DNA of 52,426 bases, from the NCBI GenBank assembly GCA_963721455.1, contig CAVRJG010000012.1:1-52426 (forward strand), written 5' to 3'. How positions within the stretch are numbered: the first letter of the stretch is position 1; the number at the start of each line of letters is the position of its first letter. The position numbers and the translations under genes are program-made. This DNA is from an uncultured Methanosarcinaceae archaeon. Its GTDB lineage: Archaea; Halobacteriota; Methanosarcinia; Methanosarcinales; Methanosarcinaceae. This document shows positions 4,426 to 47,617 of the stretch, in pieces. The notes under the pieces are model-generated. The model did not search any database, had not been told where the DNA came from, and saw only the letters and a list, made by a program, of their open reading frames with translations.

Positions 4426-5945
4426 TTACTGGAACCCATAAGTTCCGGGGATTCTCCTCAGAAGCATGCCTTCAACAATTATCGGGTTTGTCCTCTGGGC
4501 TGTTGTCAATGCGATCTCGAGCTTGAACTCTTTTTCGGTAAGATGGTGAGAATCGAGTCTCCCTTTTTGACTGATTCCCCCATCTTTTTATGGATGGCAA
4601 CCCCGGCTCCCTTGTCGTTAGGAGCCCCTGCAAGCCTGGCAATTTCAATAATCCATTTATTGTCAAACTCGATAACATATCCGTCTGCAGAAGCAAAAAT
4701 ATCGGCAGTATATTGCCCTACCTGAATATCATTCGACGTAATATTCGGATCTCCGCCCTGAGCTTCAATAATCTGTTTCATCTTTTCGAGGGCTTTCCCG
4801 CTCCTTAGTGTTTCCAGTGCAACTTCCTTTCCACGGTCTCTTGGCGCTGCACCCCCCATTTCAAGCAGGATACCCGCAAGAGCAGCACTCTTTTCAATAA
4901 GGCTGTTTGGGCCTTCCATGCTTTCCAGCACTTTCAGAGCTTCCCTGACCTCCAGCGAGGGCCCCACTTTTCTTCCAATGGGAGAAGAACCGTATGTTAT
5001 GGCACACTCGACATTCATTCCGAGCCTGTGCCCCAGGTTAATCAGGTCTCTTGCCAGTTTCTGCCCTTCCTGGACAGTTGGAACTTTTGTACTTGGCCCG
5101 ACAGGGATATCCATTACCACATTGTCGGCCCCTATAGCCCCCTTTTTTGCCATAATTGAGGCAAGCATCTGGTAGTAAGGATCAATGGAAAGAGGGTACT
5201 CGATTCTTATAAGTTTGTCATCGGCAGGTGCAATATTGGTAGCTCCGCCCCACACAAGAGCACCTCCTACTTTCTCGGTTATCTCCTTGACCTCCTGGGC
5301 GCTGAACTCTACGGGACAAAGCACTTCCATGAGGTCTGCAGTCCCACCTGCACCTGTTATTGCCCTGGAACTTGTCTTTGGGATAAGAAGCCCGTTTGCG
5401 GCAATAATGGGGACAACCAGGAGAGAGATCTTGTTTCCGGGCACTCCTCCTATCGAGTGCTTGTCCATTATAGGATGAGTATCAAACTCGATCCTATCCC
5501 CACTGTCGATCATAGCCCTTGTCAGCCATTCGACCTCGTCATCGGTCATTCCGTGAATATAAGAAGATGTTATATAAGCTGAGAGTTCGATGTCACTGAG
5601 GTTTTCTTCCACTATATCGTTTACGAGCGTTTTGAGATCATCCTGCACAACCGGCATTTTATCCATAATTTTCTTGATCACGGTTGCAGATTTTGAGCGG
5701 AATGCCGGGACAACTTCGACCGGCTTGTCCCAGTCCTGAAAGTGCTTGTAAACTTCGGAAAAGACTCCCAGTGTACCCGGAGGAACCATATCATCCGTCG
5801 TGTCCACAATAGCGGAAAGGCTTTCGTGTCCGCGGATGCGGACCCTATCCCCCGGATTAACCCCCAGTTCCTTCGCATCGGCAATATTAAACAACACTTT
5901 GTGCTGCCCTATTTTTATGTTAAAATGTTCCAGCTTCAACTGCAT
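4426..5945 (-). CDS. deoA: AMP phosphorylase (thymidine phosphorylase family), with an apparent 1-bp deletion near 4540
   Basis: DKHSIGGVPGNK and KTSSRAITGAGGTAD motifs. The natural C-terminus (EKEFKLEIALTTAQRTNPIIVEGMLLRRIPGTYGFQ*) continues in another frame to TAA at 4426-4428. Confidence 0.9.
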
Positions 5946-6162: not shown

Positions 6163-7439
6163 AGGATCTCAAATTAGCTCTTAAAATCTATAATCTAATT
6201 TGACACCCGTTTCTTTAAAAGTATCTCCCAAATGAATTCTTATTTCCAACTTTATTTTGCATTTCTGTCAGCACCAGCAGTTGATATGCTATGAAACTCA
6301 ATAGAGAGTAGAGTCCTCTACTCTCATTTCTCACTCTTCTGATATCGAATTTTACTGTACCCTTAATATGTCCATGTATCTTTTCACATTCAGCTCTTTG
6401 TTTATACTGTTCATCAAAAGACTCATCTCTGATGTTCTGGTTTCTCAGGTACATTCCTACCTGTTCTTTCCTTCCAATCTCATATAGAAATTTGAGCTTG
6501 TTTTCCATCGGTGCATGAACATCTCCGCCGATTCTCCACTTTTTATTTACCCAGTGATTGATTCTTTCCTCTTCACCTTCTTGATTGATTACGGCATTTG
6601 AGGCGTAGGAGATAATCGGTTTTGCATCCAGATGATACCAAATGTCAGAATGATTAAGGAATGAATCATAACCTCCATCTGCAGAATACAATTCGAGATC
6701 AGCGTTCATCTTCTTTAGGGCTTCAATATGGTTGAGAAGTTCTGGAGAATCACCAGCAACTCCTTTTGTATGAGTCATGAAAACAGGGTAAGTTCCAACC
6801 ATTGTAATATGGGCCTTATCCATTTTGCATTCATAATGAGAATTGTAATCAGCATGTTTATCGTATCTTGAAGCTTCAAGTGGAGTGGAATCGATCTTAG
6901 CTTCCTTTTCCTCAGAAAGTTTGAGAATTTTTTCACCTAAAAGCATCATTATCTCATTGATTCCTTTATCTCCAAGCCTATACTTCACAAAATGATGAAG
7001 GGTTCCACCTGAAGGAAGTTTAATCTGACCGCTTTCATCAAAAAATGAGAGCACGATGGCTTCTTCCTCTGTTAAGGAAGAAATGGTTTTATCATATGAA
7101 AGTTTCCTGAAACATTTCACAACAAAGAGTTTTATCATAGAAGAAACACTGTATTTAAAGTGCCAACTTTTGTTGGTATAAAAAGTACGCTCGACGTGCT
7201 TTGCAATATCGTCAATGCAGAGGAAGTACAGGAATTGGCAAATTGAAGTGCTTTCTCTGCTAAGATAGTTATCGAAGGAGTCCTCGAAGAGGACTCCTTT
7301 ATATAACATACTGTTTTTCGCCATGAGAACGGCATATCTGGCATTATTTAAAGTTGCCACTATCGAATAAAGACAAGTGCCTATCAGAGTCAGTGAAAAA
7401 AGAATAGGTTTTTAAGTCAAAATTCTAATTTGAGAGCTT
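6163..7439 (-). mobile_element. IS element with DDE transposase (CDS 6215-7360; IS5/ISNCY-like)
   Basis: IDSTPLEA, SADGGYDS and RAECEKIHGHIK motifs. Imperfect 15-bp terminal inverted repeats (TIRs) AGGATCTCAAATTAG (6163-6177) and CTAATTTGAGAGCTT (7425-7439). Confidence 0.85.
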
Positions 7440-8107
7440 CAACGAATTAGAAAAATCTTCTACCGAGAAAATCCTGGATTATTTGGAACACTCAAAAATC
7501 TACAATCAAACATAAAAGTTTAAGTACATATGTGCAATTTATCGTTTAAGGGTATTTCTATTATTAAAATCACAAAAATCGGAGATTTTCTGGGAATTGC
7601 GATGGAATCGCAACAGCACGAGGTCCGTTTCGCTTCGCTCAAGCGGACTTACACTTTTACTTTTTTAAATATACCTTAGATTCGGAATATCCTTTTTTAA
7701 CCGTGGTCTTTTGCAGATTGAGAAGGAACACTTTGCATGGCAGATCAGTTTTACACTTCGTTGATTGATTCCTCCAGGGCGGTTTTCAGATCATCAATAG
7801 GATTTTTGCCTGAGGTGGCTGTTTTCGAATTATAATGGAAATTTTTCAAGCACTCCTGATTTCAGAAGCTATTAGTAAATGGGCTGTTATCTCCCCCATA
7901 AACCATTTCTAAAAAGAGTTCTCATTTGAGAGGGTGTGCCCCGATTTGTATGGGTGAATTTATATAATTTGACTGTATAGTGTATGCATTGAAAATAAAG
8001 AGACGTATAATCTGTTATTAAAAACCAATTTTTGTTTTTAATCTAAGGGTCTATACAATCTTGTTTTTAAACTATTGACTATCCGCTAAAGCGGAGGTGA
8101 AACGAAA

Positions 8108-8284
8108 ATGGCTTTTAATGACAGAAATTCCAGGGGAAATTCCGGAGGTTTCCGCGGTAACAGTGGACCAAGGGAAATGACAAAAGTGACCTGTTCTGAC
8201 TGTGGTGTTGAGACCGAAGTACCGTTCAAACCCACCGAAGGCAGGCCAGTATACTGCAGGGAATGTTTTCCTAAACACAGGTAA
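8108..8284 (+). CDS. CxxC-x17-CxxC small zinc-ribbon protein (58 aa, not in the ORF track)
   Basis: MAFNDRNSRGNSGGFRGNSGPREMTKVTCSDCGVETEVPFKPTEGRPVYCRECFPKHR*, preceded by a perfect SD GGAGGTGA. Confidence 0.9.
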   Translation: MAFNDRNSRGNSGGFRGNSGPREMTKVTCSDCGVETEVPFKPTEGRPVYCRECFPKHR

Positions 8285-8515
8285 TTCCAACGATAATCTG
8301 GGTCGGGTGTTAATTTTGTAACTAAGTTTACATTAACGCCTGATTCATATTTTCTTTTTGTTTTTTGGTTTATTCTCTTTGTTTCTTTACTCATTTCGAC
8401 CTCGTGCGGCAGGGAAAAGTAAGAACAACCCAGTATCTAGAATGATAACCGATACGAATTATTCAATATTAAATTTATAAAAAAATAAATTAAAGTCCAT
8501 TAAGGAGGAATTAAC

Positions 8516-8866
8516 CTGGCTAACTACAGAAGCACTATTAGACAAAGAAGATTAGGATCCGCAAAACCAGTAAACTCAGGAGATACCCCTGAAGTATCAA
8601 GGGTACGAATCCCCCGCAAGGACAGAAATGAAGTCCTGGCAACGGTTGCGTGTTTACTCGGCTCGAAAAGGGTGACACTTCAGTGTATGGATGGGATTGT
8701 CCGCATGGGCCGGATACCGGGCTCTAAAAAGAAGAGAATGTGGATCCGTGAAGGTGACGTTGTCATAGCCAGTCCCTGGGAAGTTCAGGACTGCAAAGCC
8801 GAAGTAACCTGGAAATACACAAGGCCCCAGGTTGAATGGCTTGAGCGGAAAGGTTACATTAAGTAA
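8516..8866 (+). CDS. eif1a: Translation initiation factor aIF-1A, probable CTG start (116 aa)
   Basis: [16 protein letters not shown]...LLGSKRV...GRIPG...WIREGDVV...YTRPQVEWL. The frame is open from CTG 8516, which follows AAGGAGG, and there is no in-frame ATG/GTG/TTG between it and the conserved N-terminal motif. Confidence 0.9.
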
Positions 8867-9119
8867 TGATTTAAAGGTATCAGAATAAAGATGCCTGAAA
8901 TCCGTATTTTACTTTTCTATAGGAGCGCGTCTATGTTGATGCGGGCAAGGCTCTATAGACTGCGACTTATCTAAGTATATTGTATTGTGGTATTTATAAT
9001 TACTAAAGAAATATGCTGAAATTTATTTTATCCCCATTATTTCTATTTTAATATATTTCTCCTGCCGGCGGTCTGCCTCACTCTCCCCAAATACTTTTGT
9101 AGAAATCTGAGAAATTAAA

Positions 9120-9808
9120 CATCACAATGATTGGGACCTAACCTGTTTTTATGACTCATACAAAAGGAGTTGCTGGTGACTCCCCTGAACTTATCAATCA
9201 TATTGAAGCTCTGAAAAAGATGGATGCTGATCTCGAATTATATTCTGCAGATGGAGGCTATGATTCATTCATTAACCATTCTGACATCTGGTATCGCCTG
9301 AGTGCAAAACCGATTATCTTCTACGCCTCAAATGCTGCAATCAATCAAGAAGGTGAAGAGGAAAGGATCAATCACTGGGTAAATAAAAAGTGGAAAATTG
9401 GCGGAGATGTTCATGCATCAATGGAAAATAAGCTCAAATTTTTATACGAAAATGGACGGAAAGAACAGGTTGGAATGTAGCTGAGAAACCAGAACATCAG
9501 AGATGAGTCATTCGATAAGCAGTACAAAAAGAGAGCTGAATGTGAAAAGATACATGGCCACATTAAGCGTACAGTATAATTCGATGTCAGAAGAGTGAGA
9601 AATGAGAGTAGAGGACTCTACTCTCTATTGAGTTTCATAGCATATCAACTGCTGGTGCTGACCGAAATACAAAATAAAGGTGGGAACAAGAATTCATTTG
9701 GGAAATACTTTTAAAGAAACGATTGTCAAAAGAATTCATTTGGGAAATACTTTTAAAGAAACGATTGTCAAATTAGATCTGAGATTTTCAGAGCTAATTT
9801 GAGATCCT
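9120..9808 (+). pseudogene. Truncated second copy of the 6163-7439 IS (3' half of transposase plus right end)
   Basis: Near-identical protein segment with TAA/TAG stops at ~9139, 9478 and ~9577. It has the same terminal CTAATTTGAGATCCT and a 42-bp tandem duplication at 9689-9772. Confidence 0.85.
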
Positions 9809-10947
9809 TAGGAGTTACGCAGTTGGCTCTTAGCATATCGTTTTTAACAACTTCCCATCCATGCGAATTAATTTAATGTGTATAATGGGTTATTTAAATA
9901 TGCTGTCACTGCCACTCTTCTAATTTTCATGGCACTTTCAAACCAGGATATTCCACTTTTGATTCTTTGTAATTCCAGTCTGAAAAAAGCTCTTAATGAG
10001 AACATTATATGTGCTCTTTGTGACTCTTCCTTTCTTGCCTGACATTTTTCGACACCACAGAACTGCTTTATTCCTCTGTGATATTCCTCAATTTTCCATG
10101 ACTTCTTTGCCAAATCTTCACGTTTTGATTCATCCATATCCTGTACATCTGTAACCCAGTGTTGCGTGTCTCCATCTTTTGAAACAATCCGAAACACCTT
10201 TACAAATCCATATGCTTTGAGATGAACCACAAGTCCTTTTGGAGGAATATCTACTGTTTCAAGTGGCACATTTCCCTTGTTGTCAGGATTTACCAAACGA
10301 TTATTTTTTAACCTCGTAAGGAAATGCCATTCTTTCGTCTTTATTGCTTTAAGGTTTTTCACACTTGCGTACCATGTATCAAACAAAACAAATTCGGGAT
10401 TAAAACCACGTTCTTCGGCTTTGTCAAGCATATCGCGGAAATGGTCATTCTTTGTTTTGTCGTCTTCATCAATGTTATAAATTCGAAAATCGATAGGTAT
10501 AACAGTTGTACCGTCTGTCCAAACTAAGGTGACCAGGCCTATCCCCTTTACAGCACGATGATGTTTTCCACTCCACATACGACGAACAAAAGCCATTTCT
10601 TTTGCGTATGGTTTATCTAATGTTGAATCGTCAACAATTAGAAAGCCTTCTTCAGGCTTAACATGACTTTTTACTTCTTCCCATAATGCTTCTGTGTCTG
10701 GAGGTTGCCTTTGAAGGCAACGAGTGAAAGCATCATGAGAAGGAGCATTAGCTACGATTGGATAACATCTAGCAGCTTCAGTACAGCTGAAAACGTTAGA
10801 TGCCGCAATGAGAAAATTAATGAAATCAATGTCACTACACTTGGGTGGGTTTATATCCATAACTCCGTACGTTTTTGGGGAACTATGGAGATATTAGTAT
10901 ATTTTAAATGATATTACTTTTTCGGCATTTCAAATGCGTAAGTCCTA
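9809..10947 (-). mobile_element. IS701-family element (transposase CDS 9868-10860)
   Basis: PSHDAFTR, LIVDDSTLDKPY, LFDTWYAS and WKIEEYHRGIKQ motifs. TIRs TAGGAGTTACGCAGTTG (9809-9825) and CAAATGCGTAAGTCCTA (10931-10947) match at 15/17. Confidence 0.9.
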
Positions 10948-45755: not shown

Positions 45756-46221
45756 AGACGAAACGATGATTTAAATAGTGATTTGCAAAGAGCAGACGTG
45801 CAGATTACTGAACTGGTGAACTACCCCTGAGCTAAAGGCCCACGGGTTTTATGCTTCTTCATGTAACATAGAGGACACGCGAACAGACCCCATGTCCAGA
45901 ACTACAAACAACAAAGCTTAGTTCTAAACCTGCAAACCTGCACAACCCTGACTACTGATATGTAAGACATATAACATTCATACAAAATCATGCAGGTTTA
46001 AGACTACAAATCTGCAGGATTATGACTACTAACTTATAATACTTAATATAGGAGCACTCTGGAATATTTAGAGTTAGATCCAGTTAGATCTCCAAATAAA
46101 AACCTTTATTATCCTGCTTTTCATTAAGGAGGGGTGAATTACGATCAATTCCAGGAAAAACTCAGAGAAAGAAGAAATTTCAGGAAAAGAAGGAGTTCCT
46201 GCCGAAAGCAGCTCTGTTGAG

Positions 46222-47617
46222 ATGGAAGATAAAAACGCAGAAAAAAAAGTGGAAGAAAAAGCGGAAAAACACAGGGTTATGCTTGAAAGGTATGGACAAC
46301 GGCTGAAAGATCTGGACCCGGAACTCGTTACCGAGGGAGATGAGATAGCCTTAAAGGAGGCTTTTATGCATGCAAAAGAGGTTATCGAGCCTGGGGAACT
46401 GGTAAGCTGGTTCACCGTCAAAGCCGAGCCTTTCTATAGGTCAGGGTCCTGGAAAATGCTGTTGCCTCTTTATGAAGATCTGCTTGATATTGCGGAAAAG
46501 AACCTCGGGCCTGAAAGTCCGGAAACTGCAACTGCGCTGAATGGGCTTGCAGGAATTTACCGCTATATGGGAAACTATGAAGAGGCCCTCAGGCTTTTTT
46601 CCAGGGCACTTAAGACCCGTGAAAATATCCCTGGACCAAAACGGCATGAGACCGGGGATACGCTCAGTGAACTGGGCACTCTCTACTATTTAATGAACAG
46701 GCATGAAGAAGCCCTTTCATTCTATAGCCGGGCGCTGGAAATACAGGAAAAATTTCTGAGTCCGGAAAATCCTGCTGCTGTCAGAACCCTAAACAGGATG
46801 GCTTTTTTTTACAAGGGAATGGAAAAACCCGAAAAGGCTGAGGAACTCTTCATCAGGGCTCTCGAATTTCTTGATAAGCTTCAGGAGCAGGAGCCTGACA
46901 ATCACGGGGTTATGTCATATAAAGCCGGGACCCTGAATAACCTGGGTGTCCTGCTCTCGGAAATGGGCAAACTTGAGGAGGCTGAAGACAGGTACGGGCA
47001 GGCTTTAAAGCTTCAGGAAAAGGTGTATGGCCCGGAGCACCCGCAGGTAGCGCAAACCCTGAACAATCTCGCCCTTCTCTATTTCCAGACCACACGGTAT
47101 GAGAAAGCCCAGATCCTCTATACCCGGTCTCTGGAAATCATGGAAAAACTCGGAAAAACCGAACACACGGGTTTTGCCACAACCCTGAACAACCTGGCAG
47201 GCGTCTACGTCCAGAAAGGCCGTCACGAAAAAGCCCTTGAACTCTACACGCGAGCCCTTGAAATCCGCGAGCGTACTCCTCGGCCCTGACAATCCTGACG
47301 TTGCCAAGACCCTGAACAACCTTGGCGAACTCCACAGAATCCTCGGCCAGCACAAAAAAGCCCTCCCCTTCTACACCCGCGCCCTCAAGATCTACGAAAC
47401 GACCCTCGGCTCGACCCATCCAGATGTCGGCACTACCCTGAACAACCTCGCAGGCCTTCATGAAAGCATGGACGAATACGAAACCGCAATCGACCTCTAC
47501 GAAAAAGCCCTCGACATAATCGAAAAAGAATACGGTCCCGACCACCCCTATTTCAAGATCACAAGGAATAATTTAATTGGCCTGTACGAGAAAATGGAGA
47601 GGAGCTGGCGGAAATAA
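46222..47617 (+). CDS. Kinesin-light-chain-type TPR protein, frameshifted near 47275
   Basis: 42-aa TPR units (HP-VA-TLNNLA-LY...ALE-Y-RAL-I-E--LGP). The two ORFs join if one base is removed. Confidence 0.85.

Follow-up and report, generated by a model that had tools for sequence, protein, structure and literature searches.

The bacterial infC gene reportedly begins with AUU and is under translational autocontrol, in work ascribed to Butler in 1987. It joins, in the gene of an initiation factor (IF3), a strong ribosome-binding site to a conserved near-cognate start codon (PMC2830850). In eukaryotes, the synthesis of eIF1, through a poor AUG context, and of eIF5, through a uORF, is likewise tied to the stringency of start selection (PMC4705826, PMC6237735). 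Bacteria of the Deinococcus-Thermus group have conserved starts of this kind in core information-processing genes, CTG for rpsL and ATC for dnaA, shown there by proteomics (PMC2830850). For archaea, the consulted parts of two reviews give AUG, GUG and UUG as start codons, and call the role of weak starts in control undetermined (PMC7531240, PMC4705826). We describe here the gene of an archaeal initiation factor, aIF1A, which resembles infC in having a strong ribosome-binding site followed by a conserved near-cognate start. It differs from infC in its codon, CUG, and in its product, which is the ortholog of IF1/eIF1A and not a proofreading factor like IF3. Unlike aIF1A, the Deinococcus-Thermus genes are bacterial, encode no initiation factor and have a narrower range. 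The situation also departs from that of eukaryotic eIF1, as the archaeal ortholog aIF1 has ATG or GTG (31 genes, see below), the weak start is on aIF1A, and initiation is directed by a Shine-Dalgarno (SD) sequence rather than by scanning.

The window, meaning the whole stretch of DNA analysed, comprises 52,426 nucleotides from an uncultured Methanosarcinaceae archaeon (positions 1 to 52,426 of contig CAVRJG010000012.1, assembly GCA_963721455.1), and all coordinates refer to it. Judged by its closest named kin, the genome is a Methanosarcina. On its forward strand lies a coding sequence of 116 amino acids (8516..8866, stop codon TAA at 8864-8866), whose product clearly belongs, by its sequence, to the archaeal aIF1A family (TIGR00523 / PRK04012; PDB 1jt8, 4mno, 5jb3). 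Profile scores were 120.3 bits for TIGR00523 (cut-off 102.9), 160.9 for NF003085 (92) and 62.8 for PF01176 (30.2), and the structure 1jt8_A aligned with residues 28-115 (E 3.5e-33). Family membership suggests that the protein binds the A site of the 30S subunit and acts in initiation. Its basic N-terminal tail (ANYRS..., residues 2-28, 8519..8599), typical of a duplicated Methanosarcinaceae clade, is followed by the RVRIP motif (8600..8614), at which the region aligning to the solved aIF1A begins, and by the eIF-1a/IF-1 OB-fold domain (8627..8815, residues 38-100 in the PF01176 match).

Upstream, the reading frame is closed by an in-frame TAA (8501..8503), only four codons before the CTG at 8516..8518. 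The SD site AAGGAGG (8502..8508) is complementary to the 3′ end of the genome's own 16S RNA (−10.7 kcal/mol), and is separated from the CTG by a 7 nt spacer, which confirms, with a 116-codon open frame behind it, the start proposed by the first-pass annotation. The claim that no ATG, GTG or TTG precedes the RVR-P motif stands as well, the earliest being GTG 8672 at residue 53, but an in-frame ATT (8510..8512) had been overlooked, which an open reading frame finder allowed all table-11 starts selects. Between 8504 and 8700 the in-frame candidates are ATT 8510, CTG 8516, ATT 8537, ATC 8609, CTG 8636, ACG 8642, GTG 8672, ATG 8687 and ATT 8696. CTG 8516 is the sole one with a good SD site, GTG 8672 reaching −1.7 kcal/mol with the same 16S end. 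Starting at 8672 would cut 52 of the 116 residues, the RVRxP strand included; the earlier statement that half of the OB fold would be deleted was too strong, as only 15 of the 63 Pfam-matched residues would go. We conclude that the window gene is almost certainly an intact aIF1A paralog, translated from CUG 8516 behind a strong SD.

The interval 7996-9100 is covered by a contig assembled from one wetland RNA run; of its 15 differences 14 are listed, and none of these falls at 8516-8518. Such a contig attests the presence of the locus, and carries no transcript start, strand or level. An assembly error at the CTG is ruled out by the same codon in all four paralogs of the genome and in relatives. 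A sigma-70 promoter scan at the locus was uninformative, the host being an archaeon.

We searched 151 genomes of the family and 301 genomes of the phylum, which we take from sequence to be GTDB Halobacteriota. The aIF1A loci read are a subset, made of the best-scoring among the matches listed and of regions picked for family spread. After removal of identical sequences, the set held 215 non-halophile genes from 27 families, 135 of them from Methanosarcinaceae, the halophiles being the order of genome G157, presumably the haloarchaea. Two genes had too little flank, which left 213 to be scored, the start being taken to be whichever NTG had the most favourable SD energy. Calls were CTG for 166 genes, TTG for 36, ATG for 5, TTA for 4 and GTG for 2. 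The 80 genes from outside Methanosarcinaceae, 30 of which come from one family, gave 64 CTG, 12 TTG, 3 ATG and 1 GTG, and CTG was present in 24 of the 27 families. As the genomes are related, these counts are not independent, and no P value is given. The first-pass annotation had considered that orthologs might carry ATG here, the CTG then being a point mutation or an error. With ATG in only 5 of the 213 genes, and a non-ATG start in 208, the CUG start is borne out, and is far more widely conserved than had been proposed.

All 166 CTG calls had an SD energy of −5.6 kcal/mol or better (median −9.55), with G at −11, −9 and −8 in at least 90% of them; a canonical rival came within 1.5 kcal/mol in five, and 105 had no in-frame ATG, GTG or TTG at all before the core. 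Across families, the SD and the CTG alone are conserved, and the flanks vary. Calling by best SD becomes unreliable when that site is weak: it gave 23 ATG, 9 CTG and 5 TTG for 37 rio1 genes, of which, by eye, 29 show ATG where it is expected, 4 have TTG, 1 has GTG and 3 are ambiguous, and it produced 6 false CTG among haloarchaeal aIF1A genes. One aIF1A gene (L123) called GTG automatically has CTG by eye. The tree used below is a quick tree, and in the DNA alignment rows L002 and L003, which stood on the wrong strand, were disregarded. The CUG of aIF1A is kept by selection over most of the phylum.

A conserved CTG might still encode leucine. In the 111 genes of the ANYRS-tail clade, the start position holds CTG 86 times, TTG 19, TTA 4 and ATG twice (L049 and L101, same alignment column), and CTT, CTC or CTA never, three codons that make up 61% of leucine codons in the genome and 53% inside the aIF1A cores. 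Since the clade never uses them and twice has ATG, the CTG is a start and not a leucine. The residue that follows it outside Methanosarcinaceae is of 12 different kinds among 64 genes, a stop codon stands directly ahead of it in L063 and L175, and the tail codons +1 to +5 of the clade genes show synonymous variation. The codon pattern, the variable next residue and the two stops exclude a conserved leucine, and also make an AUU start at codon −2 unlikely. This latter reading, in which translation begins at AUU 8510, as in infC, and the CTG is an ordinary Leu3, has some points in its favour: ATT, ATC or ATA is found at codon −2 in 88 of the 111 clade genes, AAT or AAC at codon −1 in 101, and TTA occupies the presumed start in four; moreover, the RefSeq start of M. 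mazei MM_RS10435 is the equivalent ATC. Against it, ATT 8510 lies 1 nt from the SD and pairs at −2.0 kcal/mol, so that we judged it to be part of the spacer; the codon is missing in 23 of the 111 genes, and in L063 a stop falls between it and the CTG. Together with the stops, the ATG replacements and the absence of CTT, CTC and CTA described above, this makes an AUU start very improbable. The four TTA genes (L016, L023, L073 and L080) are intact, have a strong SD and lie at three places in the tree; they may have very weak starts, use AUU starts, or be silent spare copies.

The genome contains four aIF1A genes, each with an SD and CTG. One precedes rio1 and a KH-domain gene and shares its operon with factors for 30S maturation. 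The other three, the window gene among them, form the ANYRS-tail clade (SH-aLRT 99), so that in the quick tree the window gene belongs to the duplicated clade away from rio1. Each of the three comes after a CxxC-x17-CxxC zinc-finger gene, in the window an ATG-started, treble-clef gene at 8108..8284 on the forward strand (TIGR04272, PF23477). Tree labels show that in Methanosarcina, a genus with 2-7 aIF1A matches per genome, such a gene recurs upstream of aIF1A genes of this clade; the unit made of the two genes (window 8108-8866; L005, L422) also occurs there as tandem repeats. On either side of the locus, at 6215-7360 (−), 9151-9480 (+) and 9868-10860 (−), lie DDE transposase genes and a fragment that resembles the first of them. 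Further away, at 4506-5945 (−), an AMP/thymidine phosphorylase-type gene with glycosyl transferase 3 and PYNP C-terminal domains has a C-terminus that looks short, ending in SSSSRSH.

Four paralogs amount to redundancy, and RNA of the M. mazei copy most like the window gene is scarce under standard growth conditions (baseMean 2.9, PMC11456600). One could then suppose that the window gene is a decayed spare copy, that the codon is a sequencing error, or that translation starts at GTG 8672 or at ATG 8687, the last of which has an SD-like site of −7.7 kcal/mol. The same CTG is found, nevertheless, in the rio1-linked copy and in single-copy genomes, the tail varies synonymously, and both downstream starts would cut into the fold. 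Conservation thus largely refutes these three possibilities, as far as sequence can tell, and we regard them as scarcely credible.

Other genes of the same phylum sample served as controls, with aIF5A, aIF1 and aIF2-gamma starts read by eye from codon displays, and those of the upstream zinc-finger gene called automatically. The start was ATG in all 30 aIF5A genes, ATG in 27 and GTG in 4 of the 31 aIF1 genes, and ATG in 70 of the 71 zinc-finger genes, the last having TTG. In this genome, aIF1, aIF2-alpha, aIF2-beta, aIF5A, aIF5B and aIF6 all start with ATG. The exception is aIF2-gamma: over 40 phylum genomes, TTG was read in 31, ATG in 4, GTG in 2, ACG in 2, and one was ambiguous, the four ATG being those of family f6, presumably the Archaeoglobi (loci L458-L487 and L518-L527; region G000:C54:158699 in this genome). 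The background of TTG is about 15% of the SD-bearing genes of this genome (125/854).

Weak starts were also found outside initiation factors. For ksgA/rsmA, 26 of 30 loci could be parsed, with CTG in 2 (Methanosarcina), TTG in 6 and ATG in 18; TTG occurs in other Methanosarcinaceae, and ATG mostly elsewhere (L290-L319; L304 is G000:C15:18452). For RNA polymerase B''/B, 20 of the 27 starts parsed from 30 loci were non-ATG by eye, including ATC, ATA, ATT and CTG. In Methanosarcinaceae the B'' start is apparently ATC or ATA (L428-L456; L420/L428 is G000:C56, about 34168), and in two or three other families apparently CTG or ATT. The RefSeq CTG start of Methanosarcina B'' was rejected, the alignment pointing to an ATC six codons upstream. 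Weak starts are therefore selective, yet not unique to aIF1A or to initiation factors.

A genome-wide scan for an SD followed by a suitable codon gave too many chance hits for non-AUG genes to be counted. Several individual candidates may be mentioned. A TPR-repeat gene in the window (46141-47289, forward strand) has a strong SD, TAAGGAGG, and 8 nt later an ACG that may be its start, the first canonical codon coming 27 codons past it; a paralog at G000:C25:12171 (−) is alike, which makes two copies. The other candidates with SD and near-cognate codon are a small CPxCG zinc protein with CTG (G000:C41:20358, −), whose M. mazei homolog is likewise annotated with CTG, a rubrerythrin-like gene with CTG (C38:15170, +), one gene with ATA (C39:80767, −) and one with ACG (C53:199831, +).

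Outside the phylum, the DNA-level comparison covered Methanobacteria-like, Bathyarchaeia/Thermoproteota-like and Asgard-like loci from one metagenome scan, with 80 of 571 confirmed aIF1A loci, assigned to lineages by best BLAST hit and motif. Among the metagenome matches listed, the Methanobacteria-like genes all had TTG (15/15), the 54 Bathyarchaeia/Thermoproteota-like genes had TTG (22), GTG (21) or ATG (10), with one misparsed, and three Asgard-like loci had ATG by eye. Thirty haloarchaeal aIF1A genes, which are presumably leaderless, had ATG in 20 cases and GTG in 10, and no SD was visible by eye ahead of them. In these organisms (L236-L247) a second aIF1A paralog mostly has GTG, and the first ATG. 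Archaeal-type aIF1A homologs on IMG/VR contigs started with ATG in 15 of 15 cases by eye, the SD script agreeing in 12. These contigs (L320-L334) are candidate viral sequences of 26-122 kb; the three inspected share, upstream of aIF1A, a large gene of no assigned function, and in the two scanned the downstream frame is a family-B DNA polymerase, with a MazG gene also nearby in one contig. The CUG start is a trait of SD-using members of the phylum, inside a wider archaeal tendency to non-AUG starts on aIF1A.

Published data on M. mazei (Tufail 2024, PMC11456600, in the portion available) bear on the use of this start. The RefSeq starts of its four aIF1A paralogs are ATG, CTG, ATC and ATT, and their translation efficiencies (TE) in standard growth are 11.9, 9.3, 4.8 and 17.9, respectively, for a mean of 4.49 over coding sequences, 7.5 for the AUG-started aIF1 and 25.6 for aIF5A. 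No canonical codon precedes the core in the paralog annotated with CTG, and the one annotated with ATC has a CTG two codons on; the two annotated with ATG and ATT probably also start at an upstream CTG, judging from their orthologs. The TE of the paralogs is at or above the genome mean, which suggests that the CUG is not a simple throttle. Compared with E. coli, where CUG initiation amounts to 1-2% of AUG initiation (bioRxiv 10.1101/063800, in part), the CUG aIF1A genes of M. mazei are translated well. By this measure, the CUG of aIF1A seems to serve efficiently under standard growth conditions, and nothing points to repression. No N-terminal peptide of aIF1A appeared in the rows examined of the PMC11456600 supplement, and initiation factors are unmentioned in the main text of an M. 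mazei proteomics paper (PMC4350412).

Where a strong SD is followed by a mismatched codon, as in infC and, through its context, in eIF1, initiation hinges on how the codon is inspected and not on recruitment of the ribosome. By analogy with infC, where feedback is proven, we consider it probable that the CUG of aIF1A acts as a sensor in a feedback, of some form, on start-codon stringency; the first-pass annotation had suggested a loop of this type. The strong SD would park a 30S complex on the aIF1A mRNA, and the mismatched CUG would be accepted or not according to how completely aIF1A and aIF1 occupy this complex. A shortage of aIF1A would relax proofreading, and more aIF1A would be made; when it is abundant, CUG would be rejected more often. 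Stringency may be set by aIF1A itself, by aIF1, or by both, and aIF1 may be the controller. The aIF2-gamma gene, with its conserved UUG, could be a second, more weakly coupled member of the loop, a feature that infC does not share. Strict self-control by aIF1A perhaps makes up a sizeable share of this reading, though taken by itself it is less likely than not. Compared with pure self-control, a feedback acting through the stringency of the entire initiation complex is the better fit: in archaea, rejection of non-canonical starts has been demonstrated for aIF1 and not for aIF1A, the aIF1 gene itself has ATG or GTG, aIF2-gamma has a weak start, and the M. mazei paralogs are not poorly translated. 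A negative feedback exerted jointly by aIF1A and aIF1 is supported by work in P. abyssi, where aIF1A together with aIF1 renders the complex more dynamic, reinforcing the tRNA-destabilising state, and start selection cooperative (PMC6237735), and by S. solfataricus aIF1, which discriminates against AUU (reviewed in PMC4705826). Alternatively, the sign of the feedback could be positive: without aIF1, P. abyssi aIF1A stabilises the P-site tRNA (PMC6237735), and in yeast the basic tail that eIF1A carries works in favour of poor starts (PMC5756025). The factor is essential in H. volcanii (PMC3828320).

Several observations go against feedback: the CUG genes of M. mazei are translated efficiently, haloarchaea manage with ATG or GTG on aIF1A, and ksgA and RNA polymerase B''/B have weak starts too. 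It may be that the CUG start is real and belongs to a small set of weakly started housekeeping genes, serving as static tuning or responding to another cue, such as initiator tRNA supply, growth phase, temperature or the state of ribosome maturation. In this genome ksgA, RNA polymerase B'' and some further genes have weak starts, which favours this view, as do the operon that the rio1-linked paralog shares with 30S maturation factors, and the finding that no aIF1A-specific TE shift survives correction in M. mazei under nitrogen limitation (PMC11456600, same portion). A weak SD would, however, be a simpler means of damping, and the SD of these genes is strong, as the median energy above indicates; TE is average or higher; and the ATG of most parsed ksgA genes contrasts with CTG on aIF1A in nearly all families. 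We hold static tuning, or any one of these cues in place of feedback, to be unlikely.

The nucleotides could also be conserved as an RNA element, bound by aIF1A or another protein on its own mRNA, and not for the sensing of a mismatch. aIF1A is indeed an OB-fold RNA binder, and the spacer is well conserved within Methanosarcinaceae. Yet no RNA structure was found around the start (z 0.16), the flanks vary across families where SD and CTG are kept, and replacements of the CTG go to TTG, another weak start. We find an RNA element quite improbable.

Returning to feedback on stringency, the aIF1A start shares several properties with infC and eIF1: it is suboptimal, conserved in distant relatives, and absent on the aIF5A and aIF1 controls. 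A broader scheme can be put forward more tentatively, and with some doubt. SD-using archaea might possess a homeostat of start-codon fidelity, comparable to the controls of infC and eIF1/eIF5 and built on graded weak starts in two parts of the initiation complex, with CUG on aIF1A, UUG on aIF2-gamma and AUG on aIF1, which in some lineages would also include ksgA and RNA polymerase B'', would be relaxed in haloarchaea, and would be bypassed by viruses with an AUG-started aIF1A.

No report of a CUG or other non-AUG start on aIF1A was found in the searchable full-text literature, which leaves subscription papers outside, and a term search found no 'CUG' in the accessible parts of two archaeal reviews (PMC7531240, PMC8211752). 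The CUG start of aIF1A is apparently unreported in that literature; RefSeq does label one M. mazei paralog CTG. Among the 121 aIF1A proteins listed from databases (query included), 43 begin with M/L-ANY, 32 are extended upstream, and 46 are truncated or otherwise different. With the CUG start, the N-terminus of aIF1A can be put right in many such entries, whose basic tail is either missing or lengthened. Methanosarcina, for which genetics and Ribo-seq exist, provides a direct and cheap testing ground for this CUG. If the loop is true, a CUG kept in the greater part of a phylum on an essential initiation factor bears on the role of aIF1A in start selection, and feedback of fidelity on initiation factor genes would exist in all three domains of life, with a different factor in archaea.
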